DNA of 64,000 bases from a virus. Lineage: Duplodnaviria > Caudoviricetes. The notes beneath the pieces are model-generated. The model was not told where the DNA came from. It searched no databases and was given only the letters and a program-made list of their open reading frames with translations. The DNA is taken from the IMG/VR virus record IMGVR_UViG_3300012157_000001, positions 115,402 through 179,401 of that record. The stretch is one strand, 5' to 3'. Below are positions 26,609-59,909 of this stretch, piece by piece (position 1 is the stretch's first letter; every line of letters begins with the position of its first letter). Both the position numbers and the translations under genes were made by a program.

Positions 26609-29266
26609 CTAACCGACGTCCGGAGTTGCCCAGTCGAACAGCGCCGGATCCAACTCAACCTCCGGGTTCGCCTGCATGCTCTCCGTCAGCTGTGCGAACA
26701 TGTCACGCACCACGACATCCTGCGCCTCGTCCTCGTCCAGATCGGTACCGTCGATGACCTCCGCAGCAGTTGCAGTTTTTTCAGCTAGCAACGCGGCGAG
26801 CTTGTCATCGATCGTGTTCGCGCCGTCGTAGTACGTGATCACGCATTGGTTCTTCTGGCCGTAGCGGTGAATCCGGTCCTCGGCTTGCACCAGATCGAAT
26901 GGGCGCCACACGCGCTCGAAGATGAACATGTCCTGCGCTCGCGTCAGCGTCAGCCCGACCCCTGCTGCTGTGATCGAGCACACGAGCGCGTCGAGATACT
27001 TCCGCTTCTCCGGCGGTCGGTTGAGGGGCAATCCGCTCTGGAATTCATCGATCGCTTTTTCGCGCGCGCGGCCCGTCACCTTGCCGGTGATCATGCCGAT
27101 GCGGAAACCGAGGTGCTCTAGCCCGGCTTCGATTGCGCTCAGCGCTTCGTCGTGATGCCCCATGATGATCAGCGGCCTGCCAGTGTCACGCAGGAACGCC
27201 GCCGACTCCGCGAGCACCGTATCGACCTTGCCGATTCCGGTGATCCGCCGCAGCGCCGTCAGCCGCGCAATGACCTCGGCTCTTGCGGCACGCATTGCTG
27301 CCGCTGGTCCGCCACGCCGACGTACCCATGCCAAAAACTCTGCCGCTGCTTGCCGATATTCGGTGGCGGCTTCCTCGGAGAGACCAATGGATCGGTACTC
27401 GCGAACCTTCTCGGGCAGGTTCAGAACTTCCTTGGTCCGTCGGAAGAGGTAATGCCCGCTCGTGCGCTCGCGAAGCTCACCGAGGTTCGCGTGGCCATGC
27501 ACGTTCAACATTGTTTTGCCGCCGGGGATGTGCACCTCCTGCGGATCGCAGTAGCGCCACCAGTACTCTTCCTGATTTGCCCAATCCTTCGGGGCCACCA
27601 TGTTGAGAAGCGGGAATAGCTCGTACGGGCGCCCGTTGATCATCGGCGTGCCGGTCAAAAAGAACCGCCGCGGGATGATTTGCGAGAGCCGGTAGAGCGC
27701 CGCTGCTCGCTTCGGATCTTTCCCGGGATAGTGGCCGCCTTTTTCGTTCTCATAGACGCGGAGCTCCTTCACTGCCTGCGCCTCGTCCACGATGAGCGTG
27801 GCAAACCGACGGCGCTTCAGCTTGTCGAGCACCTCCGCATCCGACGCGGCCTCGTATCCGATGATGACACAGCTCGCCTTCAGCGCCTCGTCGGTTAGCT
27901 CGGCCGCCTTTTCTATTTTCGCGACGACCAGGTCGGGGCGCCACTTCATCGCTTCGCGCCGCCAGTTCTCACGGAGAGACGCGGGCACGACCACCAGCAC
28001 GGGCGCATCCATCGCCGCGAGCGCGGTCGGCGTCTTGCCGGTGCCCTGCTCCATGGCGAGGACGCCGCTGCCCTTGTCGTTGAGCCAGAGGACTCCTTCT
28101 CGCTGCCACGGCTGCAGACCCTCTGGAATGTCGCGTTTCGCCGCGGCCGGCGCCACACGCTCGCCTGTCGCCTCCTCGATTGCCTCTTTCTCCGCCTCGG
28201 TCGGTAGCTTCAGCTTCACCTCTTTGAGGCCGCAGAACCCGGCGTTGTACTTCTTGAAGAAGAGATAACCGAAACGCTCCATGCTGAGCTCGGCATCTTG
28301 GAGCGTCATCAAGCCGATCCACTGGCCCTTTGCGTTCGTTCCCGTGCGCGCGACGACCATGCGGCGACCGTCGTGGAGCTCAATCCGGTCACCTTCCTTG
28401 ACCTGAATGGCCGCCGCGGGCGCTGGTTCGTCCACGGTGGTGGGCGCGCCCGCCGCCTGTCCCTCTGGCGCGGGGACGGGGAGCGCCGTGTGCGGCACCA
28501 TGAACGTCTCGCCGCTCGGCATAACGCCCAGGGTGCCGGCCAGCGTGTCCACGAGCGAATTCAAGACGAGCAGCCACTGCCGCTCCGTCGCTGGGAATAC
28601 GTCGTGCCACTTGCCGCGCCCGTCCTTGTACGTGATCACGCCCGCGGCCTTCATCGCGTTCTTCGTCTGCCGCCACGTGTCGCCCTGAATGAACGGCAGC
28701 ATGACCTCCCAACCCGCCTGACCCGTGCGCGACGGCTCGCCCTCCCGCACGACGATGCCCTTGGGCTTCCCGTGCTCGATCGCGTTGCCCTCTTCGTCGT
28801 ACTTCCACCCCTCGATGAACACGCGCTGCAGCGCATGCGCAGTACCGGCATAGCCGAGCGCGGTCGCGAGCTCCATCGCGCTGCCGATGTAGTGGCTAGC
28901 GTCGGACTGCTGGCGCTCCCAGGCGCTGCCGGCGGCATGTATCGCTGCGCTCACCGCAGCGCGCGAATCCATCATACCGCCCTTCGCCTCAATCGATTCG
29001 CGCATCGGCTGCGGCGCCGTCTCGATTGCGGCCTCGTACGCCGCCCGATCGGGACTCGCCGTCTCCGCAAACATCTTGTGCTTCTCGGCGCAGTACGGGC
29101 CGACGCCTCGCTCGATGCTCGCCGGGTCGCGAAGCGGGCGGCCGCAGATGAGGCACGACTTCGCGAGCATGAGCGTGCCTGCTTCGTGCTCGTAACCGTT
29201 CCATGCGTAGTGAGTCGGCCCTTCGTCCTCGGGCTCGTAGTCGTACGGCTGCATGACCTGGGCCAT
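26609..29266 (-). CDS. SNF2-family helicase (HARP-like) with N-terminal DUF6011-like Zn domain
   Basis: CLICGRPLRDPASIERGVGPYC; MEQGTGKT, VDEAQ, LTGTP, GVGLTL, QAEDRIHRYGQ. Confidence 0.9.
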   Translation of the reverse strand: MAQVMQPYDYEPEDEGPTHYAWNGYEHEAGTLMLAKSCLICGRPLRDPASIERGVGPYCAEKHKMFAETASPDRAAYEAAIETAPQPMRESIEAKGGMMDSRAAVSAAIHAAGSAWERQQSDASHYIGSAMELATALGYAGTAHALQRVFIEGWKYDEEGNAIEHGKPKGIVVREGEPSRTGQAGWEVMLPFIQGDTWRQTKNAMKAAGVITYKDGRGKWHDVFPATERQWLLVLNSLVDTLAGTLGVMPSGETFMVPHTALPVPAPEGQAAGAPTTVDEPAPAAAIQVKEGDRIELHDGRRMVVARTGTNAKGQWIGLMTLQDAELSMERFGYLFFKKYNAGFCGLKEVKLKLPTEAEKEAIEEATGERVAPAAAKRDIPEGLQPWQREGVLWLNDKGSGVLAMEQGTGKTPTALAAMDAPVLVVVPASLRENWRREAMKWRPDLVVAKIEKAAELTDEALKASCVIIGYEAASDAEVLDKLKRRRFATLIVDEAQAVKELRVYENEKGGHYPGKDPKRAAALYRLSQIIPRRFFLTGTPMINGRPYELFPLLNMVAPKDWANQEEYWWRYCDPQEVHIPGGKTMLNVHGHANLGELRERTSGHYLFRRTKEVLNLPEKVREYRSIGLSEEAATEYRQAAAEFLAWVRRRGGPAAAMRAARAEVIARLTALRRITGIGKVDTVLAESAAFLRDTGRPLIIMGHHDEALSAIEAGLEHLGFRIGMITGKVTGRAREKAIDEFQSGLPLNRPPEKRKYLDALVCSITAAGVGLTLTRAQDMFIFERVWRPFDLVQAEDRIHRYGQKNQCVITYYDGANTIDDKLAALLAEKTATAAEVIDGTDLDEDEAQDVVVRDMFAQLTESMQANPEVELDPALFDWATPDVG

Positions 29267-29277: not shown

Positions 29278-29460
29278 CTATCCGGTGCTGTCAGTGCTGT
29301 CAAGACGGGCGCGCTGCCGCAGGCACCAGCGGGCGAGCTCGACGTTGTGGAACTCGACCGCCTCGTGTTGCATTCGGATGAGCTCCCGCAGGTATTCACG
29401 CCGAAAAACCGGGTCGGTCAGTTGTTCTTCGACCCATGGTTCGCGGCGAGTGGTGGACAC
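29278..29460 (-). CDS. small hypothetical protein
   Basis: EEQLTDPVFRREY resembles N-termini of HTH antitoxin-like proteins; promoter motif upstream. Confidence 0.45.
   Translation of the reverse strand: MSTTRREPWVEEQLTDPVFRREYLRELIRMQHEAVEFHNVELARWCLRQRARLDSTDSTG
29285..29304 (-). promoter_or_regulatory. TTGACA -35 box with 9-bp direct repeat, upstream of the SNF2 gene
   Basis: CTTGACAGCACTGACAGCAC on the minus strand. Confidence 0.65.
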
Positions 29461-29535
29461 AACACGCCGAGCGTACAGTGCGGCTGGACGCGCGCGCCAG
29501 TTTTACGTGCCGCGCGCGCATTCGATGCACATATC

Positions 29536-30950
29536 GTCGGATATTGTTTGCCTCTCCGTGGGCGCTTCTCAAGGGGGATCCTCGGAGGCATACGGGCCCC
29601 TCCGCGGGCGCTTTTGACAGCAGTGAAGTCGCCGGGCTCAAAAGGGAGAGGCCCGCCGGAGACACGACGCCTCTCCGTGGGCACTGAGCTCCCTCATCTT
29701 TCTCGGAGCAACGATGCCACTCCGCGGGCGCTCGGGGGCAATTTGTCCATGGTCGGAGTCACAACGCCACTCCGCGGGCACCGAAGGAAACAGAGCGGCC
29801 CGGAGGTACGACGCCTCTCCGTGGGCTTCCGCTGGCCAGTCGGGTGTCGTCGGAGGCACTACGCCGCTCCGCGGGCGCTGATGACGAAGCACTACATCAC
29901 CTCGGAGAGACCTCGCCGCTCCGCCGGCTCTGATCGCGCCCCCATCGGGGAACGTCGCAATGTGGCGCATATGCCCGGAGACACGACGCCTCTCCGCGGG
30001 CGCTGATGGCCCCCAACCGGAGATCCTGAATGAACCCCGCCAACGCCTCGGAGACACGACGCCTCTCCGCGGGCGCTGACGGCTTTCCGAAGACAGGCGG
30101 CTCGTGCGCATGTTGCGGCCCGGAGACACAACGCCCCTCCGCGGGCTCTGACGGGAGCATCCTGCTGGTGAGCGGCGCGCCATCGGGGTGCTCTCGGAGA
30201 CACGACGCCCCTCCGCGGGCTCTGCTGGATCGAATGCGGCGTCTGATGGAGCTCGCATCCTCGTCTCGGAGAGAACGACGCCCCTCCGCGGGCTCTGACG
30301 GACGTAGTACGGCACGCCGTACACGCTGCTGGAGAAGCCTCGGAGACACGACGCCCCTCCGCGGGCGCTGATGGTCGTTGCGGCGCCGTAGGCCATTGTG
30401 AAGAGCTGGTCTCGGAGACACGACGCCCCTCCGCGGGCTCTGGCGGTCACGAACACGGAACGCTCCTCGACCTCGACGACTCGGAGAAACCACGCCGCTC
30501 CGCCGGCTCTGATCGCCGGGCACGCGCAGAGCGATGTACTCGATTGCCTGGACCTCGGAGAAACCACGCCGCTCCGCCGGCTCTGATCGTTGCTTCCGCC
30601 GTGGCTTTCGACACTTGGGTCGGCTCGGAGACACGACGCCCCTCCGCGGGCGCTGATGGATGCACCGCCGGAAGTTGGATGCGCGGTCACCCTTTGCTCG
30701 GAGACACGACGCCCCTCCGCGGGCTCTGATTGGGCGTAGATCGAGTTCGCCAAGCCCATCAGGGTGACGTCGGAGACACGACGCCCCTCCGCGGGCTCTG
30801 ATTGGCGGTCAATGCCGAAGACGGTTCGGTCTGGGCGTGGGTCGGAGACACGACGCCCCTCCGCGGGCTCTGATTGGGAGCTCATCCAATTGTCGACACG
30901 ACCGTCAGGACCGGGTCGGAGACACGACGCCCCTCCGCGGGCTCTGATTG
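29536..30950 (-). CRISPR. type V-like CRISPR array, 22 repeats (36 nt) in two blocks
   Basis: plus-strand repeat GTCGGAGACACGACGCCCCTCCGCGGGCTCTGATTG; repeat starts 29536, 29581, 29655, 29702, 29752, 29799, 29849, 29901, 29974, 30047, 30119, 30193, 30265, 30339, 30411, 30480, 30554, 30624, 30697, 30769, 30841, 30915; most uniform next to the cas gene, so leader at the right end. Confidence 0.96.
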
Positions 30951-31022
30951 GGGGCGCCGTAGCGACCCCTTTCGATTCGGGTGCTTGCATTGCATTTTGC
31001 GAGCGGTCCCATGGGCCGCTAC

Positions 31023-33032
31023 TTACTCCGCGGCTGAGACCGTTGGGCCTTCGTCCGTGTTCGCGTTCGTTTCGACGTCGTTTGCGGCATCGCGAGCGGC
31101 TGCCGCCTTTTTCGCGGCACCGGACTGGTCGCGCTCTTTGTAGCGGTCCGGACCGAACGCTGCCTTCAGCGCTGCCTTGAGCTCATGCACGCAGGCGAGC
31201 TGCCGATTGTGTCGTGCCGCCTGGTGGAGCTCGTTCGGCTTGTCCTCGGCCTTGTCCCGAAGCGCGATCTGATCGAGGTCTACCGCGCCGCTCACCTCGC
31301 AGATCTCGAACTGCGTACAAAGCTTCGCCGCGGTCACTCGATAGAAGTCGCGGCGGCGCCCCATTGCGTGGTTGCGCGCACCCGCTGCCATCGCTTCGAG
31401 GTGCTCGTCTTTCCGGCGCCACATCGCGAGCCAGAAGGTGAAAATCGTGTCCGGCGTGGTGAGCCCAAGGATCGCGGCGTACTTGCCGATGTCCGGCTCG
31501 AAGAGATCTTCGTGCGCCGCACGTCGCAGGTCGCGCCAGCGCTTCCACATGGCGTACTCCTCTTCACGCTTGTCGAGTACTTCGAGCATCACAGCCGAGA
31601 CGCGCTTGAGCTTCCAGTGCGCGCGCCACTGCGACAGACCGTGCGCCGCCTCGAACACGCGAGTCGGCTGCGACGCGATCCGCTTGGCGACCTCGGCACG
31701 CGCGCTGTCGAAGAGGGTGTCGGCGACGCTGCGGAGCCTCTCCGCGAACCGCAGCGATTCGACTACTCCCGCCCGGCGGCCACGCTCGTGCGCGCCGCCA
31801 GGAAGCCGGAGCGGCTCGCCGTTGACGTGCGCGACGATCAGCGTCTTGTTCTCGTTGTCCTGCGTCCAGCAGAGGCGCACGTTCACCGTTCCCGTTCCGG
31901 GCGCGCGCTGAATGAGCGGCTCCGTCGGATCGAGGGTGAACTGCAAGCTGTACTCCCAGCGACCCGGCGACTCCTCGCTCGGAACGAGGTACGCCCACCG
32001 CACCTTGGTATCCGGCGGGATCGGCCGGTGGAGCACGACGTCCATGGTCACCCACCAGTTGCCAGCGGGGCCGTCGTACTTCGGCCGGTAGTAGTCCGGT
32101 GCCGCCGCCAATGCCTCGCGCGTCTCGGCGCGCACGCGCATGTGCACGGTCGCGCGCTGCTTGACGCGGCCGCCGTTCGCGCCGCCTTGGTTGCGCACGT
32201 CCGTGATCCGGAGCTCGTTGTTCTTGCCGGCGAGCAGATCGCCCCACGTGGCGTCGTTGATCTCCCAGCCGATCCGGCGGAGCCGCCTGCGGCTATACGT
32301 CGGTCGCCGCTTCGGACGACGGGGCTCGCCGTCGGGCCGCGGCTTCGGGCGCTTGCATGCCGCCGGCAGGTCTACACGCTGAATTGAGTGGTACGTGCCA
32401 ACGGAGAGCAGCCTTGCCTCTTTGATCCAACCACGCAGCGCATCGGCTTGCGTCTCCAGCTGCGCGAGCCGACGCCACGCCTCAGGCCATTGCGCCTCTG
32501 CGAGCATTTCGTCACGCGCCTGAATGTCCGACCGCCGCTTTGCGTGGCGGTCTCCATCATTCGAGCCCCACGCCGAGCGGAGTCGCGCCGACCGCGCCGT
32601 GAACTCTTGCTGCGCCGGCTCCACGACCGCGGCGAACTGGCCACGCATCGGCTTCGCTAGCTCCGCGGCCGCTTTGCGCCAGGCCTTCAGCTCCGTGATC
32701 AGGTCGACCTCGTCCGATACGTCCACGGCTTTCTTCACCGGCTTCACCGGCCGTCCTGTCGCCGCCGTCGCCTTGCGTCGCTTCTCGCGGATGCCTCCGC
32801 GCTTGCCGCCCTTGCCCGCGTGCTCGCCGATCCACTCGTCGAGCTGCTGGTACGCTTCGTCGATCTCGCCGAGCCCCGGCACGGTCTCCGACCGGATCGC
32901 GGCGAACTGTGAGCGGCGCCACCGCTCGATGGTCACGAGCGACTGATAGTACTGCGCTGCCGCGCGCATCTCCGCAAGCGCGAGCGACTCACCGGTCAGG
33001 AACTTTCGAACACCGAACTTGGCAACGAGCAT
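31023..33032 (-). CDS. cas12m: Cas12m-like (type V-U1/V-M) effector, predicted nuclease-dead and C-terminally truncated, 669 aa
   Basis: adjacent to array; AGGAG RBS; YYQSLVTIER, LSVGTYHSI, VVLHRPIPPDTKVRWA, RuvC-I-like TVNVRLCW, LSQWRA, RRRDFYRVTAAKL, RQLACVHELK. Confidence 0.8.
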   Translation of the reverse strand: MLVAKFGVRKFLTGESLALAEMRAAAQYYQSLVTIERWRRSQFAAIRSETVPGLGEIDEAYQQLDEWIGEHAGKGGKRGGIREKRRKATAATGRPVKPVKKAVDVSDEVDLITELKAWRKAAAELAKPMRGQFAAVVEPAQQEFTARSARLRSAWGSNDGDRHAKRRSDIQARDEMLAEAQWPEAWRRLAQLETQADALRGWIKEARLLSVGTYHSIQRVDLPAACKRPKPRPDGEPRRPKRRPTYSRRRLRRIGWEINDATWGDLLAGKNNELRITDVRNQGGANGGRVKQRATVHMRVRAETREALAAAPDYYRPKYDGPAGNWWVTMDVVLHRPIPPDTKVRWAYLVPSEESPGRWEYSLQFTLDPTEPLIQRAPGTGTVNVRLCWTQDNENKTLIVAHVNGEPLRLPGGAHERGRRAGVVESLRFAERLRSVADTLFDSARAEVAKRIASQPTRVFEAAHGLSQWRAHWKLKRVSAVMLEVLDKREEEYAMWKRWRDLRRAAHEDLFEPDIGKYAAILGLTTPDTIFTFWLAMWRRKDEHLEAMAAGARNHAMGRRRDFYRVTAAKLCTQFEICEVSGAVDLDQIALRDKAEDKPNELHQAARHNRQLACVHELKAALKAAFGPDRYKERDQSGAAKKAAAARDAANDVETNANTDEGPTVSAAE

Positions 33033-49953: not shown

Positions 49954-50291
49954 GGGGCCGATCGGTTTCGACGTGGAGTGAAAGGAAGGCCTGCGCGCAG
50001 GGAGTAGCCCACCCGGACGGGCTCGTTTAGTTGCGAACGACAACAGCACCGCTCTGCCCATCGCGGCTTGAGCCGTCGCTACGGAGAGGAATCCGAGTAT
50101 CCGAAGCGGCGTGACTACACGGGTCGAACTGCGCGGGGCCGCCTCGACGCAGAGGTCATCACGGCGGCCGAGCATACCGGATCATCGCGATAAGGTGCCG
50201 GAAGCCCGCTGCGAGGCTTAGAGCAGCTACGCGCGTGAACGAAGGTCATCTGGAAGCTTTGCGGACCCGGGTTCGATACCCGGCGGCTCCA
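49954..50291 (+). ncRNA. ssrA: tmRNA, tag ANDNSTALPIAA*
   Basis: 5' GGGGCCGATCGGTTTCGAC; tag ORF 50033-50071; 3' GACCCGGGTTCGATACCCGGCGGCTCCA; G3:U Ala acceptor. Confidence 0.95.
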
Positions 50292-50345
50292 CTCCCGCTG
50301 TCACGCGGGATGGTGGAGGCAAGGACGGTCAGTCCTCGCCCCTTG

Positions 50346-50379
50346 GAACGGCTCGGAGACCCCGGGCCGTTTCGCTTTT
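50346..50379 (+). terminator. intrinsic terminator downstream of ssrA
   Basis: GAACGGCTCGG-AGAC-CCCGGGCCGTTTC hairpin followed by GCTTTT. Confidence 0.6.
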
Positions 50380-50434
50380 CGGTTGACCGGTTGCGCGATC
50401 CTCGCTCTCGCGTGTAGGCTTCTGCCACGACCAC

Positions 50435-50920
50435 GTGATCGCACTCGGGATTGCGCCGGGGCTCCGTGCCCTGGGATACGCAGTGCTGCAAGCCAACGGC
50501 GCGCCGCGGGCGGAGCTTTTGGACTCGGACGTGCTCCACGCCGGCCGCGGCATCACGGTGCAAAATGCGATCGACGTGGCTCGCCGCGTCCACGCGCACC
50601 GGCTCGTGCTCGACGTCGTGCTGGCTCGAAACCCCCCTGGCATCGTCGTGCTCGCGCCGCAGGCGGACCTCGCCGAGCCCCCGGAGCACATCGCGCTCGT
50701 GCGGCTCGGGCTGATGGCCCTCGGCCAGGCGTTCCAGGTGCGGATCCTTGATTTGCACAACCCGGCGGACCTCTACGAAGCGCTCGGGATCGAGTCGTCG
50801 AAGGGGATCGCCCCGACGCTCCGGGCCTCGGTGAGGGGGCCGACGGCGGTTCCCAGGGACCGCCGGGTGCTGCTCGCCACGGCGGCCGCCGTGGCGGGGT
50901 GGAGGGAGGTTGCCCGTTGA
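50435..50920 (+). CDS. RuvC-like protein lacking catalytic residues
   Basis: MIALGIAPGLRALGYAVL (canonical GIDPG); 161 aa with RuvC-like layout. Confidence 0.65.
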   Translation: MIALGIAPGLRALGYAVLQANGAPRAELLDSDVLHAGRGITVQNAIDVARRVHAHRLVLDVVLARNPPGIVVLAPQADLAEPPEHIALVRLGLMALGQAFQVRILDLHNPADLYEALGIESSKGIAPTLRASVRGPTAVPRDRRVLLATAAAVAGWREVAR

Positions 50921-50929
50921 GGTTTTCAC

Positions 50930-51391
50930 GTGAAAGGGTTTCACGGTCACATGCGGCGGCGCCGACGAACTGAAGCCGAAATCGCCGCTGGGGTTGAGCT
51001 CCCAGAGCCGGACACCCGGTGGTGCTCGGGGTGCCAGGCCGAACGGCCGAAAGAGGAATTTGCTCGGTGCAAACGCAACGGGCGGCAGCGGCTCTGTCGG
51101 ACTCACCACGCCGAAGCCATGCGCCGCCACCGGGCGGCGCACCCGGGCGCAGAAACAGAGCGTTACCGGGCCGACCCGGCCTACGCCGACAAAGTGCGCG
51201 CCCGCAAACGGGTGAGCATGAGGCGATACCGCCAGCGTTCGGCGAAGCGACCCTGTGAAAACTGCGGCGAGCCCGTGACGCAAGCGCACCATGACGACTA
51301 CACGAAACCGTTGGAGGTGCGCGCGCTTTGCCGCAAGTGCCACGGCGCCCGGCACTACCCAGAAGCGCAGCCGAAGGCCCGGAAGTCCTAG
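50930..51391 (+). CDS. HNH-like Zn-finger protein
   Basis: CSGC; PCENCG....AHHDDYTKPLEVRALCRKCH. Confidence 0.75.
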   Translation: MKGFHGHMRRRRRTEAEIAAGVELPEPDTRWCSGCQAERPKEEFARCKRNGRQRLCRTHHAEAMRRHRAAHPGAETERYRADPAYADKVRARKRVSMRRYRQRSAKRPCENCGEPVTQAHHDDYTKPLEVRALCRKCHGARHYPEAQPKARKS

Positions 51392-51446
51392 CGGTCCGCG
51401 AACTCCCCTTGCGCCGGCCCCTCGACTCGACGGAGCATTCAGACCC

Positions 51447-51983
51447 ATGACGATCACGCTCATTCTCGCGTGCCTCGCTTCTCTCTCCGTAGGGGTTCTG
51501 CTCACCACGCTGCTTCTGCGCCGCCGCAGCCGAGCAGCCGGCGGCGCCGCGCTTGCGTCGCTCGGCCAGATCGACGTCACGATCAAGGATTTGGAGTCGG
51601 CCCTCGCGCTGCAGCGGGAGGAAACGGATCGCGCCCGCGCTCAACGCGACGAGGAAGCGCGTAAGGCTCGCGAGTACTTCGACCGCATCGACGGGATCGT
51701 GAAAGAGGCAGATGACTGCCGCCGGCTGCTCGTGAAGACGGGCGCTGAGCACGGCGCGGCGCAGGCGATGATGCTCGCCGAAATCGACAGCGTGGTGCAC
51801 CAGTACGGCGCGCTGGCGAAGCAGTATCAGGAGGCCACCGGCAAGCCGGCGCCACGGCCCGAGCCGCGGCTCAACGCTGCCATTCAAGTCGTCGCTGCCG
51901 ACTTCCGGGAAGCGCACGTCACGCCCTACCAAAAGGCCACCCCCCAGGCACCTGTCGAGGCGAGTCCTCCCACTGGGGGTTGA
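51447..51983 (+). CDS. membrane-anchored coiled-coil protein
   Basis: N-terminal TM helix plus heptads. Confidence 0.65.
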   Translation: MTITLILACLASLSVGVLLTTLLLRRRSRAAGGAALASLGQIDVTIKDLESALALQREETDRARAQRDEEARKAREYFDRIDGIVKEADDCRRLLVKTGAEHGAAQAMMLAEIDSVVHQYGALAKQYQEATGKPAPRPEPRLNAAIQVVAADFREAHVTPYQKATPQAPVEASPPTGG

Positions 51984-52017
51984 TCGCGGTCCCACAAGGA
52001 CTTAACCTCGAACGCCA

Positions 52018-52815
52018 ATGCCGACGAGCGACGAGGGGCCTGCGAAGGCCCCGGCGGTCCGCCACGAGGTGGAAGGACCGCGGATGGCGGATGCTCTCTA
52101 CGAGCCGTTCAAGAACGAACCGACGCCGATTGGCGTCGATCCTTCGGACGGGCTCCCGCGGCCGATCGTGTCGCAAGCGTGGAAAGACGCTCAGGCGCCC
52201 GCGCTCGACCCGGAGCGGTTCGTGTGCATGGCGGACTGTTCGGTATTCGTCATTCGCGATTCGTGGGGCGCGCCGATCGTGCGACTGGACCCGTCGGAGG
52301 TGGAACGCGCACCGGACGGTCGCTGGCGCGTGAAGGCCGAGACGCTCGCCCTCAAAGTGAAGGATCGGCTCGACGCGGCTCGGGAGGCACGCCGGTCTCG
52401 CGACAAGCGGCACCTGCCCGCCAGTTCTTCCTCGCCTAAGCGCACCGACGCCGAGATGTGCGAATTGGTGTTCGGTGGCTCCGACGGTTACTGCATCGTC
52501 GAGCCGCTACGTCCGCAGTGCCAGCATTACGCGCGGCAGCTCATCCCGTTCCCCGACGATCGGGAGCACACGATGGCGATCCGTCTTTGCACTGCGCGCC
52601 GCACAGACGAAGGGGAGTTTTTGGACGTCGGCAACCAGCAGGTGCTCGCGTGCGAGTTGCGCTCTCCCGTGTTCGGCAACGAAGCCGCCCGCATCGACGC
52701 CTTCGAGGCGAAGACGTTCGAAGATCAGCAGCAGAGCAAGGCCAACGAGGTGGCCGACGACTTTGACCTGGATGCGGCGCTTGGCGCCCAAGACACGACG
52801 ACGAAAGGAAACTGA
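52018..52815 (+). CDS. Cys-containing hypothetical protein
   Basis: 265-aa ORF in operon. Confidence 0.65.
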   Translation: MPTSDEGPAKAPAVRHEVEGPRMADALYEPFKNEPTPIGVDPSDGLPRPIVSQAWKDAQAPALDPERFVCMADCSVFVIRDSWGAPIVRLDPSEVERAPDGRWRVKAETLALKVKDRLDAAREARRSRDKRHLPASSSSPKRTDAEMCELVFGGSDGYCIVEPLRPQCQHYARQLIPFPDDREHTMAIRLCTARRTDEGEFLDVGNQQVLACELRSPVFGNEAARIDAFEAKTFEDQQQSKANEVADDFDLDAALGAQDTTTKGN

Positions 52816-52819
52816 TCGA

Positions 52820-53353
52820 ATGGCTGACGACAGCGACGACAATCTGCAACGACTGGACGCAGTGGTGAACGAGATCGACGCCCACTACGGACGCCTCGTC
52901 CGCGAAGCGAAGCTCGGTAGAGCGACGGTGCCTTCGATCATGCAGGAGCTCGCCGAGACCGTGATGCCTCTCATGAAGGACTTCTCGGTCCGCATGTTCG
53001 CGGAGATGATTGCCGTGCGGCAGTACATCCATCAGGAGGTCGAGCCGGCGCTCCAGCGGATTGGGGACGATCAGGACTCGATGCTCCTGGCAGAGGACGC
53101 CGAGATGATCACCCAACGGCTGCTCTCGTACCGCTCGATGCTCGAAGGAGGGATCGCGCGGCTCACTGGTGACGACAAGGCGCGGATGGAAGCGGAGCTC
53201 GCTGAGGTCGACACAACACTCGCGCGTGTCGCGGAGATCACCGAAGAGGTCGAGCCCGACGACAATCCCGAACCGGGAGACGAGCCCGAAGTCGTGGATG
53301 ACGACGACGAAGAGGAAGAGGTCGAAGGCGGTCGCGCAGCAGGAACGGCGTGA
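52820..53353 (+). CDS. acidic helical hypothetical protein
   Basis: AAGGA RBS; GTGA-coupled to next gene. Confidence 0.7.
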   Translation: MADDSDDNLQRLDAVVNEIDAHYGRLVREAKLGRATVPSIMQELAETVMPLMKDFSVRMFAEMIAVRQYIHQEVEPALQRIGDDQDSMLLAEDAEMITQRLLSYRSMLEGGIARLTGDDKARMEAELAEVDTTLARVAEITEEVEPDDNPEPGDEPEVVDDDDEEEEVEGGRAAGTA

Positions 53354-56154
53354 GCGACGACCAGAACTCGAACGGCGCGGCGGCCGAGACGCCGCCGCGC
53401 GTGAAGCGGCCGCTGAGCGACAAGCAGCGCGAGGTGCTCGCTCGTGGTCAGCAGGCGCTCGCCGCGAAGCGTGCCGAGCGTAAGGCGAACGCTGCGGGCC
53501 TCGTGCAGACGAGCTCGACAGAGATCCGAGAGGCACGGCAGCAAGTGGAACCGGCGCCGCTCCGAACGATGGACGACATCGTCGCTCGTCACATCGCTGA
53601 GCCGGCACCTCCGGTGGATATTCCACCGGTGGAACAGGTTGCTCGCGAGACGAAGCTCTACACCGTCGGCGCGGACCCGCTGCCACCGCCGGAGAACAAT
53701 CCGTTCCTGAACGACGGCGTGATCGCTTCGAGTGAGGGCCCAGCTCCGGATCTGGTGGGTATCCAGCCGCCACGAAACCTTGCCGGTCTGATGGAGATGT
53801 GCCCGACGATCGGCGACGGGCAGTACCACATCGAGGTCGTTCGCCGCGCGCCGCAACAGTACGGCGGCATCGTTTGCAAAGGTATCCAGCGGTCGATCAA
53901 GGAATACATGACCGACACGGACTTCGTGTCGTTCTACGGCGGCGGCGACTACATTCTCACTCTCTACGGGCCGCCGCCACGAGGCGGCATCATCGATGCG
54001 CGCACGGGGCGCCCGCGCAGCAAGGCGCTGTCGCCGCCCGTAAAGCTCGAAATCTCTCCATCGGTGCACCCGCCGAACGTGCAGGCGGCAGTGCTACTAG
54101 ACGACGAAATGCATGCGACGGAAGGCGAAGATCAGATGCGGTACTACCAGCCCGGTTTCCAGACCGGCATGCCGGCACGTCCGGTGACAACTGCGGATGC
54201 TCGGATGCTGGAAGTGCAGCTTACCCACGAGGAAAAGATGCAAGCGCGTCAGGAAGCCAAAGAAAGGGAGCTGCGCGAGCAGCAGTCGGGGATCAGCGCA
54301 TCGCTCGGACCTGTGCTCGATGTCATGCGTCAGAACAGCGCGGAAAGCATGAAGGCGGTGGAACGCACTGCGGAGGCGCGTGCCCGTATCGCCGAGCAGA
54401 CGGCAGAGCGTGCTGAGGCGGACCGAGTTCGCGCCGAGGCCAAGGCCGAACAGGCGCAGCGCGAAGCGCGCCTGGAAATCGAGCGCGAGCGCAGCAAGCC
54501 GACCGACGCTGCGCAGCTCGTTGACGGTTTTTCGAAGATGGCCGCGGTCCTGAGGCCCTCCGACAACGGTTCTGCGGTCGAGGCGAGGGCGGCTGAGAAG
54601 GCGCTCGATCTGGCGCGCCAGGAAATCACGCGCGTGACGCAAGCGCACTCGGAAGAGGTGTCACGGCTTCAGAAGGACCACACGGACACTATCCGGCGCA
54701 TGCAGGAGGACCACCGCGCCGAGATGACGCGCCGGCAGGACCAAGAGCGCAACGAAACGGAACGGCAGCAACGGCAGCATACCGAGGAACTCAGGCGTCA
54801 GGAGGAGCGCCTAAAGGACAACCTGGAGCGTGCCGAGCGACGCGCCGAAGAGGCAGAACGGAAGGCCGAGCAGCGCGTTCAAGAGGCAGAGACACGCACC
54901 GAACGCCGAATGAGTGAGATGCGCGACGAGCACAAGCGCATCCTCGATGACCTACGGACGCAGAACCAACAGCGTCTCGACGACGAACGCCGGCAACACG
55001 ACCGCGATCTGAAGACGCAGGCGGCGACCTACGAAACGCGGCTTTCCGGACAGAAGGACATGTACGACAACCGGATGACGATGGCGGCTCAGGAAGTGAC
55101 GCGCGTCACGTCCGAAGCGGATCGGTATCGGAAGGAGGCGGCGGACAACAAGGATCTGAACAAGCAGATCGAAAAGGCTCAAGAGGCGGCGTCACTCCTC
55201 GGCTGGGGTCCATCCGGCGATGGCGCTGATCAGACGCCGCCCCCGAAGGACTGGAAGGAGATGCTCGGACGAGCCGGCATGGAGCTCGTGTCGAAGCTCC
55301 CGGAGATTGTCCAGAGCGCCGGTGACCAAGTAGCAAAGCTTCGTGGGCAACCGGGGCCGACGCCGGAGCAGGTACAGGCCATGCAGTACGACCAGATGCT
55401 GCGCCAATCGCACCAGACCATGATGGCGCGGCAGATGGGCGGAATGCCGGCCGCCCCGAACCTGCCACCGCCGATGCGGACGGCGAGCGGCGCGGTGTTC
55501 CAACCGGCGCCGCTCCGTTTCGGCACGGAGGACTCGTCTGGACCGCTCGACCCGAGCGCGCCAAGCCCACGCGGGTTCGATCAATTCGACGCGCAGCAGT
55601 CGATGGCACCCGCGTATCAACCACCACCGCCCGCGTATCCGCAGCAGACGTACCAACCGGCACAACCGCCGCAGTACCAGGCGCCACCGCCGCCAGCGTA
55701 CCAAGGACAGCCGTCGCAGTACCAGGCGCCACCGGGGGCGCCACAGACCTATCAACAGGCGGCGCCGCAACCGGGAGCCGTGCCACAGCAGACGTACCAA
55801 CCGGCGCCAGCGCCGCAACAGGCAGCACCGGCAGCGCCGGCAGCGCCACAGATGTCGCAGGCACCACCGGGTTCCGTACCGTCGGTGATTCCGACCGAGA
55901 TGATCGTGCAGTTCGCGCCGGTGCTCGAACAAGCGCTCGCTTCCGGCGCACCAGTCGAGGAGATCGCGCAGGAATTGATCGGGCTGCTCGGGCCGGCGAA
56001 CCTCGCGCAGGTCGTGAACGGCTTGAAGCCAGAGCGCGTCGTGGTCGAGCTCCAGAAGGCGGGCAAGGGATCGAGTCCGCTGGTGCGCCGCCAGGGCCAG
56101 CAGTTCCTGCGGGACATCTGGGGGCACTGCGCGGCGTTGCTCGCGCAGGGATGA
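53350..56154 (+). CDS. large coiled-coil protein with Pro/Gln/Tyr-rich region
   Basis: 934 aa; about 300-aa E/R/Q coiled coil; YQPP repeats. Confidence 0.85.
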   Translation: MSDDQNSNGAAAETPPRVKRPLSDKQREVLARGQQALAAKRAERKANAAGLVQTSSTEIREARQQVEPAPLRTMDDIVARHIAEPAPPVDIPPVEQVARETKLYTVGADPLPPPENNPFLNDGVIASSEGPAPDLVGIQPPRNLAGLMEMCPTIGDGQYHIEVVRRAPQQYGGIVCKGIQRSIKEYMTDTDFVSFYGGGDYILTLYGPPPRGGIIDARTGRPRSKALSPPVKLEISPSVHPPNVQAAVLLDDEMHATEGEDQMRYYQPGFQTGMPARPVTTADARMLEVQLTHEEKMQARQEAKERELREQQSGISASLGPVLDVMRQNSAESMKAVERTAEARARIAEQTAERAEADRVRAEAKAEQAQREARLEIERERSKPTDAAQLVDGFSKMAAVLRPSDNGSAVEARAAEKALDLARQEITRVTQAHSEEVSRLQKDHTDTIRRMQEDHRAEMTRRQDQERNETERQQRQHTEELRRQEERLKDNLERAERRAEEAERKAEQRVQEAETRTERRMSEMRDEHKRILDDLRTQNQQRLDDERRQHDRDLKTQAATYETRLSGQKDMYDNRMTMAAQEVTRVTSEADRYRKEAADNKDLNKQIEKAQEAASLLGWGPSGDGADQTPPPKDWKEMLGRAGMELVSKLPEIVQSAGDQVAKLRGQPGPTPEQVQAMQYDQMLRQSHQTMMARQMGGMPAAPNLPPPMRTASGAVFQPAPLRFGTEDSSGPLDPSAPSPRGFDQFDAQQSMAPAYQPPPPAYPQQTYQPAQPPQYQAPPPPAYQGQPSQYQAPPGAPQTYQQAAPQPGAVPQQTYQPAPAPQQAAPAAPAAPQMSQAPPGSVPSVIPTEMIVQFAPVLEQALASGAPVEEIAQELIGLLGPANLAQVVNGLKPERVVVELQKAGKGSSPLVRRQGQQFLRDIWGHCAALLAQG

Positions 56155-56170
56155 CGGGAGGACGAGACCA

Positions 56171-56680
56171 GTGGCGGACGAGATGCAGCGGATCTTCGAA
56201 GAAGCGGGCTACACCTATCCAGGAAGCCCGGAAGCCGGCGCGCGGCTGTTGCTGTCGGAAGTTCAGCGCAGTCAGCATCAGGCCGACGCAGAGAGCAGGA
56301 AGTACTCCGTCTTGGTGTCGGAGCTCAACGTTGCGCTCGACGCTTCACCGTTGCAATACGCGCCAGGAGATCCAGTGCGGCACATCGCGCTGCTTTGCGA
56401 GCGCGTGCAGGAGCGGCACGTGGCCGCAATTACGAACGCCGTGCGCACGCTGCGAGCGCGCCACCCGAGGCAGAGCGAAGCGCATCGCGACGACGACGAG
56501 TTTCTTTTTGCGATGGACGAGCTGGGCGACGCTGAAGCGGTCGGGCGCCTAATTCCAATCATCGAAGCGAGCGTTGCCTATTGGCAGGCGCTGCAGCGCG
56601 GCGATGACCACGCGAGCGTAGCGGCGGTGCTGACGCGGTGGTCGCAGGCCGTCTCGACTCACCTAGAATCCGCACTCTGA
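56171..56680 (+). CDS. hypothetical protein
   Basis: GGAGG RBS. Confidence 0.65.
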   Translation: MADEMQRIFEEAGYTYPGSPEAGARLLLSEVQRSQHQADAESRKYSVLVSELNVALDASPLQYAPGDPVRHIALLCERVQERHVAAITNAVRTLRARHPRQSEAHRDDDEFLFAMDELGDAEAVGRLIPIIEASVAYWQALQRGDDHASVAAVLTRWSQAVSTHLESAL

Positions 56681-56683
56681 TCG

Positions 56684-56974
56684 ATGGCCGCGATCTACAC
56701 GGTAGAGCGAATCGACAACGGAGTTGAGGTTCGCCTGTCGCGCAACCACGCGCTCGTCTGTCGGGTTTGGGTCAACGACAGCGTCGCTGGGCAGATGCTT
56801 ACCGGCTTGACCGCGGCCAACGAAGCGCGCCTTCGCAAGGAGATGAGGGAGGAGTACGACGCCGTGCTCGCCCGGGTCATCGCGCTGTTCCGGGCGGTCA
56901 TGGACGGTAAGCCGGGGGGCTCGATTACCGCGCCGGACGACTACGCTACGCATCTACTGCCGTTCGTAAACTGA
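56684..56974 (+). CDS. hypothetical protein
   Basis: last ORF of the operon. Confidence 0.6.
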   Translation: MAAIYTVERIDNGVEVRLSRNHALVCRVWVNDSVAGQMLTGLTAANEARLRKEMREEYDAVLARVIALFRAVMDGKPGGSITAPDDYATHLLPFVN

Positions 56975-57248
56975 AAACTCACGCCCGCGACAGCGGCGCC
57001 GCCGGTGCTGCCGATTTTCTCTTGACGTGCTTCGCCGCGTGTGGCAGGCATAGATCGACGCCAATGACCGCTTTCTCCATGCGCTCACCGCAATCCTCGC
57101 GAAGGACAGAATCCTTCGCAGGGTATACGTGTGCGCTACGCGGAGGCGATCACGGTACCTTGTGGGCCCTCCAGAGCGCGACCATCGTCAAGAATCCGGA
57201 GGCACCCACGTAAAGGGCGGCAAGTACTCGAATCAAGGACCAACGAGG

Positions 57249-57277
57249 AAGCCGCCCGGGAAACCGAGGCGGTTTTT
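57249..57277 (+). terminator. intrinsic terminator in the tRNA-array leader
   Basis: AAGCCGCCCGGGAAACCGAGGCGGTTTTT. Confidence 0.65.
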
Positions 57278-57302
57278 GACGTTTTGGGGTCCAGAAAAAC
57301 AC

Positions 57303-57385
57303 GCACCGCTAGACCGTTATGGATACGGGCTCCGCTGTAAACGGAGTGCCTTCGGGCCAGGAGAGTTCGATTCTCTCGCGGTGCA
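57303..57385 (+). tRNA. tRNA-Tyr(GTA)
   Basis: loop CTGTAAA, long variable arm. Confidence 0.85.
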
Positions 57386-57449
57386 CGAAAGAAAGGAACG
57401 AAGTGAAACGCAAGCGAGCGCCGGTAGCTCCGGCAACGAAAGGAGACTC

Positions 57450-57521
57450 GGGTCGTTGGCACCAAGGTGGTGCAGTCGGCTTTTAACCGAAACGAGGCAG
57501 GTTCGATTCCTGTGCGACCCA
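57450..57521 (+). tRNA. tRNA-Lys(TTT)
   Basis: loop CTTTTAA. Confidence 0.85.
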
Positions 57522-57522
57522 C

Positions 57523-57593
57523 GGGCTTGTAGCTCGAAGGTCGAGCAGGCGCCTCTTAAGCGCTCGGTGAGAGTTCGATTCTCTCCAGGCCCA
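57523..57593 (+). tRNA. tRNA-Lys(CTT)
   Basis: loop CTCTTAA. Confidence 0.88.
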
Positions 57594-57599
57594 CAGCAC

Positions 57600-57674
57600 T
57601 CCGGCTTCGTCCAACGGCAAGGACAACGCGCTCTGACCGCGTGAATGGTGGTTCGAATCCATCAGCCGGAACCA
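57600..57674 (+). tRNA. tRNA-Gln(CTG)
   Basis: loop CTCTGAC, CCA. Confidence 0.9.
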
Positions 57675-57681
57675 GAACAAT

Positions 57682-57708
57682 GCTCGCGAGAGCGCTGCTC
57701 TTTGACAA
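57682..57708 (+). promoter_or_regulatory. boxB-boxA antitermination element
   Basis: hairpin GCTC-GCGA-GAGC then TGCTCTTTGACAA. Confidence 0.65.
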
Positions 57709-57809
57709 TCTGCAAGGACGTGACGACGCGCATCGACTGCGATGCGTGTGGCGGTCTCTCCTCGACCAAACAAGACTGAAAGGCGGCGGCCTTCGGGCCG
57801 CCGTCGCAT

Positions 57810-57881
57810 TGCCAGGTGGCGAAGCGGAAACGCAGGCGGCTGTTAACCGCCCTACCGCAGGTTCGAATCCTGCCCTGGCAG
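57810..57881 (+). tRNA. tRNA-Asn(GTT)
   Basis: loop CTGTTAA. Confidence 0.88.
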
Positions 57882-57884
57882 CTA

Positions 57885-57946
57885 GTCCCCGAGTCGCGCA
57901 AGCGACGTGGCGCTTACGACCCCTTCACTGGGCGAGCCCGGGGACG
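57885..57946 (+). pseudogene. degenerate tRNA-Val(TAC)-like element
   Basis: acceptor GTCCCCG/CGGGGAC, loop CTTACGA, collapsed T arm. Confidence 0.4.
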
Positions 57947-57954
57947 AATCGTCT

Positions 57955-58029
57955 GCCGGTCTAGTTCTCGCGGGAGAACCTCCGTTTCGTAATCGGATGA
58001 GAGCGGTTCGACTCCGCTGATCGGCTCCA
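57955..58029 (+). tRNA. tRNA-Thr(CGT)
   Basis: loop TTCGTAA, CCA. Confidence 0.82.
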
Positions 58030-58125
58030 TGCTAGGGAAAAATGCGGGCGTAGGTATCGGCAGATGCGCGTCCCGCAACCCTTAGCAGTTGCCGCTACTC
58101 TGCTGCCGCAGGGTGAGCGGCGCCT

Positions 58126-58197
58126 GCCCCGTTCGACTTCAGGTGAGGTCGCCGGTCCTTCAAACCGGCCAGGTCGGATCGTTACCGACACGGGGTG
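58126..58197 (+). tRNA. tRNA-Glu(TTC), C33
   Basis: stem CCGGT/ACCGG, loop CCTTCAA. Confidence 0.72.
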
Positions 58198-58282
58198 CCT
58201 AGCGCAGCGTGTTCCGGGGGAAGAACCCGGCCCGGGCCCGGTCGTTCCGACACCAGGTCCGGCAAGCGCGACTGCGCGCATC

Positions 58283-58355
58283 GCCCCGACAGCTGACCCG
58301 GTGATAGCGCCTGCCTGAAGAGCAGGAGAGGTTCGTTCGACTCGAACTCGGGGCA
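58283..58355 (+). tRNA. tRNA-Phe(GAA)
   Basis: loop CTGAAGA. Confidence 0.85.
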
Positions 58356-58364
58356 CCGTTCGAC

Positions 58365-58436
58365 CGGAGAGTAGCCTATTGGTCAGGCACTTGATTTGGG
58401 ATCAAGATCAGGCAGGTTCGATTCCTGTCTCTCCGA
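58365..58436 (+). tRNA. tRNA-Pro(TGG)
   Basis: loop TTTGGGA. Confidence 0.88.
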
Positions 58437-58443
58437 CAAGTAT

Positions 58444-58518
58444 GGTGGCCATGGCCGAATGGTTAGGCACGCGACTGTGGCTCGCGGTACGCGGGTTCGA
58501 TTCCCGTTGGTCACCCCA
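58444..58518 (+). tRNA. tRNA-His(GTG)
   Basis: loop CTGTGGC, G-1, CCA. Confidence 0.9.
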
Positions 58519-58519
58519 T

Positions 58520-58592
58520 CTCCCGACCTCTGGACGAGGCGCGTGGTTTCCTAAACCGTGCGAGGCAGGTTCGATTCCTGCTCGGGAGACCA
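58520..58592 (+). tRNA. tRNA-Arg(CCT)
   Basis: loop TTCCTAA, short D arm, CCA. Confidence 0.8.
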
Positions 58593-58594
58593 AT

Positions 58595-58666
58595 GCCCAC
58601 TGACGCGACGGGTGTCGCGGCGCGCCTGTCACGCGCGTGAGACGGATTCGAGTTCCGTAGTGGGCG
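58595..58666 (+). tRNA. tRNA-Asp(GTC)
   Basis: loop CTGTCAC. Confidence 0.8.
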
Positions 58667-58670
58667 CTAC

Positions 58671-58738
58671 AGGCCGGCCTCTGGGAGGTGTGTGGTCTCC
58701 AAAACCGCGCTTGCTCGGTTCGATTCCGAGTCGGCCTG
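58671..58738 (+). tRNA. tRNA-Trp(CCA)
   Basis: loop CTCCAAA, short D arm. Confidence 0.8.
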
Positions 58739-58745
58739 CAAAGAC

Positions 58746-58816
58746 GGGGTCGTCGTCCAATGGGAAGACGCGACGTTCGCAACGTCGAGATGCGGGTTCG
58801 ATCCCCGCCGACTCCA
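58746..58816 (+). tRNA. tRNA-Ala(CGC)
   Basis: loop TTCGCAA, G3:U70. Confidence 0.88.
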
Positions 58817-58821
58817 CGAAT

Positions 58822-58892
58822 GGGGCCTTAGTCCAACGGGAAGACGTCGCGATGGCATCGCGAAAGTGCGGGTCCGACTCCCGCAGGCTCCA
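58822..58892 (+). tRNA. tRNA-Ala(GGC)
   Basis: loop ATGGCAT, G3:U70. Confidence 0.82.
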
Positions 58893-58899
58893 CTAACAT

Positions 58900-58974
58900 C
58901 CGGGTGAAGGCTCAAGGCGGGCCGCGTGTCTGGGGGACACGTGCGGGTTGGTTCGATTCCAATCACCCGGACCA
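58900..58974 (+). tRNA. tRNA-Pro(GGG)
   Basis: loop CTGGGGG, CCA. Confidence 0.8.
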
Positions 58975-58975
58975 T

Positions 58976-59044
58976 GGGGAGTCCGCTGGGGCGGAGTCCG
59001 GTCCTGCAAACCAGACGCGGTCGGTTCGATTCCGACACTCTCCA
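58976..59044 (+). tRNA. tRNA-Ala(TGC), C33
   Basis: acceptor GGGGAGT/ACTCTCC with G3:U70, loop CCTGCAA. Confidence 0.7.
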
Positions 59045-59111
59045 CCGACTCGCGGTTCCAGGGAGGAACTGGACGTCCAAGCCGTTCAAATCGGCAGGCC
59101 GTGAGTTCTTT

Positions 59112-59182
59112 GCCGTCATAGCTCTAAGGCGGAGCACTCCCTCGGTACGGGAGCGGGCTCGGTTCGATTCCGAGTGGCGGCT
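59112..59182 (+). tRNA. tRNA-Thr(GGT), C33
   Basis: loop TCGGTAC. Confidence 0.8.
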
Positions 59183-59187
59183 CTGAT

Positions 59188-59263
59188 GCGGGTGTCTCCT
59201 CAATGGTGAGGACGCTGCCTTCCAAGCAGATGTTGGCCGGTTCGATTCCGGTCACCCGCTCCA
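59188..59263 (+). tRNA. tRNA-Gly(TCC)
   Basis: loop CTTCCAA, CCA. Confidence 0.88.
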
Positions 59264-59265
59264 TC

Positions 59266-59337
59266 GCAGGAGAGGCCGACTGGTGAGGCACGTGCTTGCC
59301 ATGCACGTTCATGCGGGTTCGATTCCCGTCTCCTGCT
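59266..59337 (+). tRNA. tRNA-Gly(GCC)
   Basis: loop TTGCCAT. Confidence 0.85.
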
Positions 59338-59516
59338 CCGAGCTCGGCAGCGAGCTCTAGTGGGAGGCTTGCCAGGTTCTGCACGCACGAGCGTGCACAC
59401 TCGGAGCGTGGTTTATGGAACTACGCGACGCCCTTGGTTCGGTGCCATGTCCACCCCGCGAAGCCTCGGGATCTCGCCATGGAAGGGAACCCCGGGGAGA
59501 AGGCACCACAAATTCT

Positions 59517-59588
59517 GACGCGCAGTTCTGGTGAGCAAACGAGTCTGCAAAACTCGTGAGCGCGGTTCGACTCCGCGGCGCGTCTCCA
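59517..59588 (+). tRNA. tRNA-Cys(GCA)
   Basis: loop CTGCAAA, U73, CCA. Confidence 0.85.
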
Positions 59589-59596
59589 CACGTTAC

Positions 59597-59665
59597 GCCC
59601 CCGCCGACGGCTCGGCGCGCCGCCTTCTAAGCGGAGACGTGGAGGATCGACACTTCCCGGGGGCG
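59597..59665 (+). tRNA. tRNA-Arg(TCT), divergent
   Basis: loop CTTCTAA; atypical T loop. Confidence 0.65.
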
Positions 59666-59672
59666 CCTCAAT

Positions 59673-59748
59673 GTCTCGTTCGTCTAGCGGCCCAGGACAC
59701 GCGCCTCTCACGCGCGTAACGGGGGTTCGACTCCCCCACGAGACGCCA
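59673..59748 (+). tRNA. tRNA-Glu(CTC)
   Basis: loop CTCTCAC, CCA. Confidence 0.92.
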
Positions 59749-59766
59749 GTGACTGCACTGAACAGT

Positions 59767-59837
59767 GCCTCCACCCATGGACGGGTACTGCGGCTACGAA
59801 CCGCGGAAAGAGGGTTCGATTCCTTCTGGAGGCGCCA
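59767..59837 (+). tRNA. tRNA-Arg(ACG)
   Basis: loop CTACGAA, CCA. Confidence 0.82.
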
Positions 59838-59838
59838 C

Positions 59839-59908
59839 GCCCTCGCTGCCGGAAGCAGCGTCTCGGCTCCGAACCGAGAGCGCGGTGGTCCGACTCCACC
59901 CGAGGGCA
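59839..59908 (+). tRNA. tRNA-Arg(CCG)
   Basis: loop CTCCGAA. Confidence 0.78.
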
Positions 59909-59909
59909 C

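Follow-up and report, generated by a model that had tools for sequence, protein, structure and literature searches.

The closest described relatives of the system presented here are the type V-M CRISPR-Cas12m systems (MmCas12m2, PMC10442227; GoCas12m and others, PMC11013384). Binding by Cas12m proteins is not followed by cutting, the proteins process their pre-crRNA themselves, and PAMs vary from one protein to the next (PMC11013384). In the case of Cas12m2, the heteroduplex comprises 17 bp, an HDD-type site aids DNA binding, and the pseudoknot of the crRNA pairs repeat positions -22..-17 with -8..-3, with the 5' end of the repeat disordered (PMC10442227). A phage-borne member, MvCas12m of myxophage MV-1 (bioRxiv 10.64898/2026.09.14.751636), resembles the present case according to the available part of that preprint: a Cas12m and an array occur without cas1/cas2/cas4 in a phage of Polyangiales, and no protospacers were found. 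MvCas12m has 610 aa, keeps D-E-D and is accompanied by eight spacers, and the same part of the preprint describes no block of short units.

Similar design elements are found in three further kinds of system. Viral Cracr RNAs and arrays (bioRxiv 10.1101/2024.10.29.618823) and CRISPR mini-arrays (10.1101/2023.03.03.530964) are, like the units described below, phage-encoded and stacked, with degenerate repeats and short spacers. Cracr arrays act by transcriptional repression with short seed matches; they take over type I or V-A effectors of the host, carry 1-3 spacers and are directed at cas or CreT promoters, and V-M is not mentioned in that preprint (bioRxiv 10.1101/2024.10.29.618823). TldR proteins, the nuclease-dead TnpB repressors of prophages, pair a dead RuvC protein carried by a phage with a conserved, unchanging 16-nt guide for the repression of a host gene, the proven target being host fliC (bioRxiv 10.1101/2023.11.30.569447). 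The homing crRNAs (atypical or delocalized) of I-F3 and V-K CASTs are likewise fixed guides with diverged repeats that serve a constant target beside a variable array (PMC11656645).

In this study, we analyzed a 64,000-nucleotide stretch (the window) of a complete virus record of 179,401 bp with direct terminal repeats and 64.6% GC. Its CRISPR locus shares with described type V-M systems the effector fold and sequence family, the register of the pseudoknot handle, the lack of adaptation genes and the predicted non-cutting binding, but it lacks any RuvC acidic residues and the zinc finger, is phage-borne and has two classes of unit in its array. Unlike with Cracrs, the phage brings its own cognate effector beside the array, 7-8 short units lie inside a normal array, and a search for cas-promoter targets in the phage's own effector and leader regions and in 11 host Cas12m loci found none above chance level. 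Whereas TldR uses one guide on a long omega-RNA scaffold, here a CRISPR effector is combined with many short-handle, array-derived guides, for which the targets are candidates only. CAST homing crRNAs, in contrast, direct transposition and occur as single units outside the array or at its end, and nothing suggests a transposase role here. In its proposed action the phage system is thus like TldR and in its construction like Cracr arrays, yet it is a member of neither, because a phage-encoded Cas12m is used and the short units stand inside an ordinary array. The literature searched, in which subscription papers are thinly covered, contained no account of short units kept fixed within a V-M array. 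The presence of a selected panel of minimal guides in this phage Cas12m array is well supported by sequence comparison.

A motif scan of the minus strand found 22 consecutive cores, from 30942 down to 29538, behind the Cas12m-like gene (Table 1). The core-to-core period is 69-74 bp for 14 units and then falls to 52, 50, 47, 50, 47, 73 and 46 bp, which agrees with the original prediction of 14 normal units followed by compact ones (its 74/45 is our 73/46, split one base differently). Each short unit consists of a 28-nt pseudoknot handle followed by a guide of 17-24 nt; the room for the guide between the repeat 3' end and the next core (core-to-core distance less the last two bases of the repeat) amounts to 24, 22, 19, 22, 19, (45) and 17 nt. 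Spacers of 9-16 nt, as first proposed, are obtained only by subtracting a full 36-nt repeat. The accompanying figure of 17-24 nt between cores describes the usable guide and holds for six of the seven intervals, not for the 73-bp unit, which leaves 45 nt. This unit had been taken as normal but represents two fused short units: U20 is a fusion, in which phage L203 joins the start of unit 8 of phage L010 to the tail of unit 9 of L010. The limits first drawn for the block (29536-29936) also proved too narrow, since an eighth orthologous guide follows the last repeat. The distal block is not an artefact of motif picking, because nowhere but inside U20 do the gaps leave space for a skipped repeat.

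All eight distal repeats keep the pairing blocks GCC/GGC and CGGAG/CTCCG, and the sole stem change is ATCCG in the last repeat, as had been noticed from the sequence. In these repeats 1/128 stem positions are substituted compared with 24/57 linker positions (Fisher p 2e-13). The free divergence described for linker and repeat 5' end is confirmed as well, since in the 9 nt preceding the core only 3-5 of 9 positions agree with the consensus distally, versus 5-9 of 9 proximally. Single-strand folding gave a z near 0 with a method that cannot score the pseudoknot. The same handle recurs in a second array (L292; genome position 31249-32740, +), which has no cas gene next to it and contains the same two unit classes, long and short units being intermixed. 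Between its units 13 and 14 lies a 225-bp insert with a small ORF-like stretch.

Table 1. Features of the phage Cas12m locus (window coordinates).
Feature	Position	Strand	Remarks
Cas12m-like effector gene	31023..33032	-	669 aa from ATG at 33032; ORF open to 33104
Leader, effector stop to first repeat	30953..31022	-	70 bp; similar leaders in L001, L010, L011; putative role
Proximal block, 14 ordinary repeat-spacer units	29929..30952	-	period 69-74 bp; spacers not common to relatives
Start of long spacer U14, first 14 nt	29960..29973	-	identical in L204, remainder diverged
Handle 15 + U15	29877..29928	-	handle 29901-29928; guide 29877-29900, 24 nt; first 20 nt identical in five phages
Handle 16 + U16	29827..29876	-	guide 29827-29848, 22 nt; L203 ortholog with 3 changes
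Handle 17 + U17	29780..29826	-	guide 29780-29798, 19 nt; no ortholog in relatives compared
Handle 18 + U18	29730..29779	-	guide 29730-29751, 22 nt; first 16 nt identical in L011, L203
Handle 19 + U19	29683..29729	-	guide 29683-29701, 19 nt; first 17 nt identical in L011, L204; variant in L203
Handle 20 + U20	29610..29682	-	U20 29610-29654; conserved 15-nt guide start, then remains of collapsed unit
Handle 21 + U21	29564..29609	-	guide 29564-29580, 17 nt; first 13 nt identical in L011, first 8 in four phages
Terminal handle 22 + U22	29519..29563	-	handle 29536-29563; guide about 29519-29535; L010, L011 share 16 nt, then diverge

The effector is recognized by neither Pfam nor NCBIfam. A profile built from it nevertheless matches the Cas12m structure 23vw in the PDB with E 1.7e-28 and Cas12m2 with E 6e-8. 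Its structure model (mean pLDDT 74) retrieves 8hhl (E 8e-15) and 8pm4 (E 2e-13) with Foldseek, and the four best matches are all Cas12m structures, at TM 0.33-0.46 and with uncertain domain positions. Judged by sequence and modeled fold, the effector is a member of Cas12m (type V-M). Its RuvC-I acid position is occupied by Arg and is variable across the clade, no acid is conserved in RuvC-II, and a RuvC triad of D-E-D, H-D-D or N-D-D type is missing. In addition, the C-terminal zinc finger is absent: 0/26 effector proteins have a CxxC in the last 110 aa. By these sequence traits the clade is a further-reduced derivative of Cas12m, in line with the dead Cas12 that had been postulated, and binding without cleavage is predicted by analogy with characterized members. 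As the protein has neither the HDD-type site nor the zinc finger, DNA binding is only predicted and its strength uncertain, which counts against a role of the units as silencing guides. The effector is the sole copy in the phage genome, and no match to Cas1 was found in the complete genome with its terminal repeats; the adaptation module is absent.

The architecture of the short units corresponds to what Cas12m2 has been seen to hold. With CGGAG at -23..-19 and CTCCG at -7..-3, the register of the phage handle agrees with that of Cas12m2, and the distal units retain exactly the part that is ordered there, plus at least 17 nt after it. Among 30 sub-43-nt units in five arrays, which include orthologs and hence are not all independent, the guide room ranges from 17 to 39 nt and is below 17 nt in none (0/30). 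Stem substitutions in other arrays are mostly pairing-neutral (17 substitutions, with 3/488 pairs broken), in a motif search that favours intact cores. Compensatory stem variants are present in relatives, namely CGGCG/CGCCG in L004 and CGAGG/CCTCG in L014. At 45-52 nt, such units would represent a minimal Cas12m unit of natural origin that lends itself to compact multiplexed CRISPRi.

Related phages were found via effector homologs at 87-94% (L010, L011, L004) or via helicase homologs (L203, L204). Orthologous short units occur in the same order in four related phages. Five phages have U15, with the same 20 nt in each, though the four-fold sites of the helicase gene differ from the window by 16-45%; U18, U19, U20, U21 and the terminal U22 are each present in three to five phages, U16 in two, and U17 in the window only. 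When the window is compared with L011, guide nucleotides 1-13 differ at 0/65 positions and nucleotides 1-16 at 1/80, versus 27/45 from nucleotide 17 onward (an ungapped count, inflated by indels). In the same units 0/80 stem and 25/37 linker positions differ, and in the effector gene 115/353 four-fold sites (33%). With sites taken as independent, the binomial P of this seed conservation is 7e-12. The gradient recurs across guide-to-ortholog comparisons: positions 1-13 are identical in 16-20 of 20, and positions from 17 onward in roughly half or two thirds. The intact seeds and stems, set against the diverged linkers and synonymous sites, indicate purifying selection rather than decay on the distal handles and 5' guide segments across five phages, as far as sequence comparison can tell. 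Recent transfer of the block does not explain this conservation, since the linkers in the same units have diverged. Long spacers behave differently, as had been anticipated: only 1/36 recurs (U14), and of that only the 5' part, its first 14 nt. From its sequence, U14 looks like a candidate intermediate on the way from an ordinary spacer to a fixed mini-guide. U15 can fold into a 7-bp hairpin (window 29877-29902, minus strand), which may explain why its positions 17-20 are conserved as well.

The idea that these guides are invariant and recombination-resistant did not stand, however. The guides are selected, but judged from the alignments the block is plastic, with units gained, lost and fused between relatives; L204, for instance, lacks the final two handles through loss. 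Short units are not confined to the trailer end: L004 and L011 have some close to the leader, and the second array has some in its middle. More distant effectors (23-63% identity) are accompanied by uniform arrays as far as the contigs reach, several being cut by contig ends, so the short-unit feature seems specific to this phage clade.

Taken together, the original interpretation is partly supported. We consider it probable that the distal block supplies the phage-encoded, non-cutting Cas12m with fixed minimal crRNAs, which would silence constant PAM-adjacent sites outside the phage genome. Most likely, these units arose from ordinary spacers that proved useful, by keeping the 5' seed and shedding the spacer's unused 3' half together with the dispensable 5' end of the repeat that follows. 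Transcription would proceed from the leader into the array, together with or behind the effector gene; Cas12m would excise the units, as other members do, so that short units yield ready-made guides, and loaded Cas12m would park on constant sites, where it would prevent transcription. These sites are most likely genes or 5' regions of a Polyangiaceae host, the alternative being a persistent co-resident mobile element; host genes appear favoured because the seeds have been frozen over large phage divergence. A more far-reaching version, in which a fully dead Cas12m acts as a multiplexed RNA-guided transcription factor, is tentative and in our estimate falls somewhat short of an even chance: spacers would have been domesticated into some 15 fixed guides, spread over two arrays, and these would keep a constant set of host genes repressed, perhaps with a conserved single-domain response regulator among them, while the leader end still takes up new spacers. 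The locus would record a route from an immune-type CRISPR array to a fixed regulatory programme, read from sequence alone and with intermediates still visible (U14, U20). If the silencing reading is true, the conserved guides form a short list of what a myxobacterial phage must silence. The locus is also a warning that, in type V arrays of phages, degenerate trailer repeats can be better conserved than any other part.

Polyangiaceae are inferred as the host family from sequence, because the best named cellular matches of the phage DnaB are from Polyangiaceae and distant Cas12m loci, relatives of the effector, occur in 7/383 genomes of this family. One of these loci (L297, G324:C16:340678-344790) encodes a zinc-finger-bearing Cas12m and has a two-repeat array with a repeat near-identical to that of the phage. 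It is a possible source of the phage system; given its near-identical repeat, cross-loading of phage guides by a host Cas12m is possible as well.

Searches for the targets covered up to 383 Polyangiaceae genomes, IMG/VR and the phage's own genome and returned no shared PAM-adjacent target set, so the common targets that had been envisaged did not emerge; the true host is perhaps outside the genomes searched. In the complete phage genome, 6/8 distal seeds and most other guides have no 13-nt match with at most one mismatch; there are five scattered one-mismatch matches in all and only three TTN-anchored 8-mers. The distal guides match neither the region upstream of the phage's effector nor its leader or the leader of the second array. 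The whole array against 151 family genomes gave at best E 1e-4, with matches only of the low-complexity spacer U7 or of the repeat, and against the phage collection no match. Searched in 41-151 Polyangiaceae genomes, U16, U18, U19, U20, U21 and U22 have scattered matches without a common gene or 5' flank. U18, U20 and U16 have 2, 2 and 4 matches in family genomes versus 2, 3 and 6 for reversed controls; U21, U19 and U22 exceed their reversed controls, with matches in unrelated genes without a common flank, as codon-like words would give. Matches of 9 nt in 11 host Cas12m loci are at chance level (12 seen, some overlapping, versus about 8 expected). Downstream of a host Cas12m locus (L299, about 2600, minus strand), a cysteine-rich repeat gene contains a 13-nt match to the terminal guide of L010 and L011, which is within chance given how many comparisons were made. 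By direct reading, U17, U20 and U21 have purine-rich reverse complements that resemble ribosome-binding regions; such targets would be species-specific and invisible without the genome of the true host.

A single lead comes from U15. An exact 16-nt match is present in 8/383 Polyangiaceae genomes, and in 7/8 it lies antisense in a single-domain response-regulator (receiver-domain) gene, at the HYITKP motif; the eighth is in what we take, from recognition of the sequence, to be an acyl-CoA dehydrogenase-like gene. TTN is the PAM of several Cas12m proteins, and all eight family matches follow TTG or TTC, compared with 3/16 distinct non-host exact matches. However, the eight matches represent two independent sites, with about 1.4 expected by chance on a rough estimate, the TT derives from a Lys or Asn codon, and the match ends at 16 although 20 nt are conserved. 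The reversed control of U15 (28 matches) overlaps the same HYITKP site and is not an independent null. An 18-mer of U15 has 0 exact matches in Myxococcota in GTDB and nine scattered non-myxobacterial ones. Furthermore, TTN-anchored U18-U21 are at chance level in five genomes with the U15 lead, as are U15, U18 and U20 in five genomes with Cas12m loci. We therefore regard the response-regulator gene as a candidate target of U15 that is rather unlikely to be the true one.

Within the silencing reading, the fixed guides may instead be loaded and aimed at conserved genes of a recurring competitor (a phage, satellite or plasmid of the same host), resulting in long-term superinfection exclusion. V-M systems and viral mini-arrays are mostly linked to mobile-element competition (PMC11656645), and such targets would fit the failure to find chromosomal ones in the family; the differences in U22 between the window and L203 are three bases apart, as at codon third positions, which hints weakly in the same direction. 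Yet U15, U18 and U19 have no plausible viral target in IMG/VR (1/52 loci matched by U18 or U19 exceeds 58% GC), the guides have no match in related phage loci, and a target that evolves slowly is suggested by seeds that stayed frozen over 16-45% synonymous divergence. We judge competitor targets unlikely, though a serious contender. A scan of IMG/VR for the repeat found no further array of this exact repeat.

Still less probable is a role of the short units at the RNA level, as docking, processing or decoy sites of Cas12m or as a terminator or attenuator before the downstream helicase gene, with spacers kept for their folding. U20 and U21, each of which ends in a T run, can indeed pair with the handle in front of them (window 29564-29682, minus strand), and the U15 hairpin could be read likewise. 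This spacer-handle pairing is no stronger than with shuffled spacers, though (U20 p 0.16, U21 p 0.55), and free-standing handles in the genome are not above control (8 vs 8-12). Exact conservation of 13-20 nt from the handle 3' end, fading after about 16, is moreover the pattern of a seed, whereas a stem could covary.

Neutral trailer-end decay, in which old units common by descent are shortened by random deletion, is very unlikely, and its original rejection is borne out by the selection on handles and 5' guide segments in five phages. Old spacers are normally shared at trailer ends, and decay does happen, as illustrated by the handle collapsed inside U20 and the two handles lost in L204. It accounts neither for untouched seeds and stems beside diverged linkers in the same units nor for the hard 17-nt floor, nor for the short units found away from the trailer end. 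An overlapping small protein-coding frame is extremely unlikely: several program-listed ORFs overlap the block and gene callers mark ORFs over the arrays of L010, L011, L203 and L204, but the frame is not conserved, whole units are gained and lost, and orthologous unit lengths differ by non-multiples of three (52 vs 51, 47 vs 48, 73 vs 74, 46 vs 45 bp).

Several further features of these loci were observed. Directly downstream of the array, an SNF2-type helicase with DUF6011 is encoded (window 26609-29266, minus strand), the ortholog of which in L203 (L203:685-4617) carries an intein with a LAGLIDADG domain. Between the array end and the helicase gene lies a 60-codon ORF (window 29278-29460, minus strand) with nucleotide-level conservation in L010, L011 and L204. 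Elsewhere in the window (49954-62956, plus strand), the phage carries 31 clustered tRNA genes along with a tmRNA. In all relatives, the handle's variable N reads A ahead of U20 and G ahead of U21. In a 92%-identical relative (L004:7044-7253), a different, very short leader is followed by an array that opens with a short unit and has CGGCG/CGCCG handles, and a 55%-identical relative (L017:7313-7612) shows an exact tandem duplication of its first two spacers.
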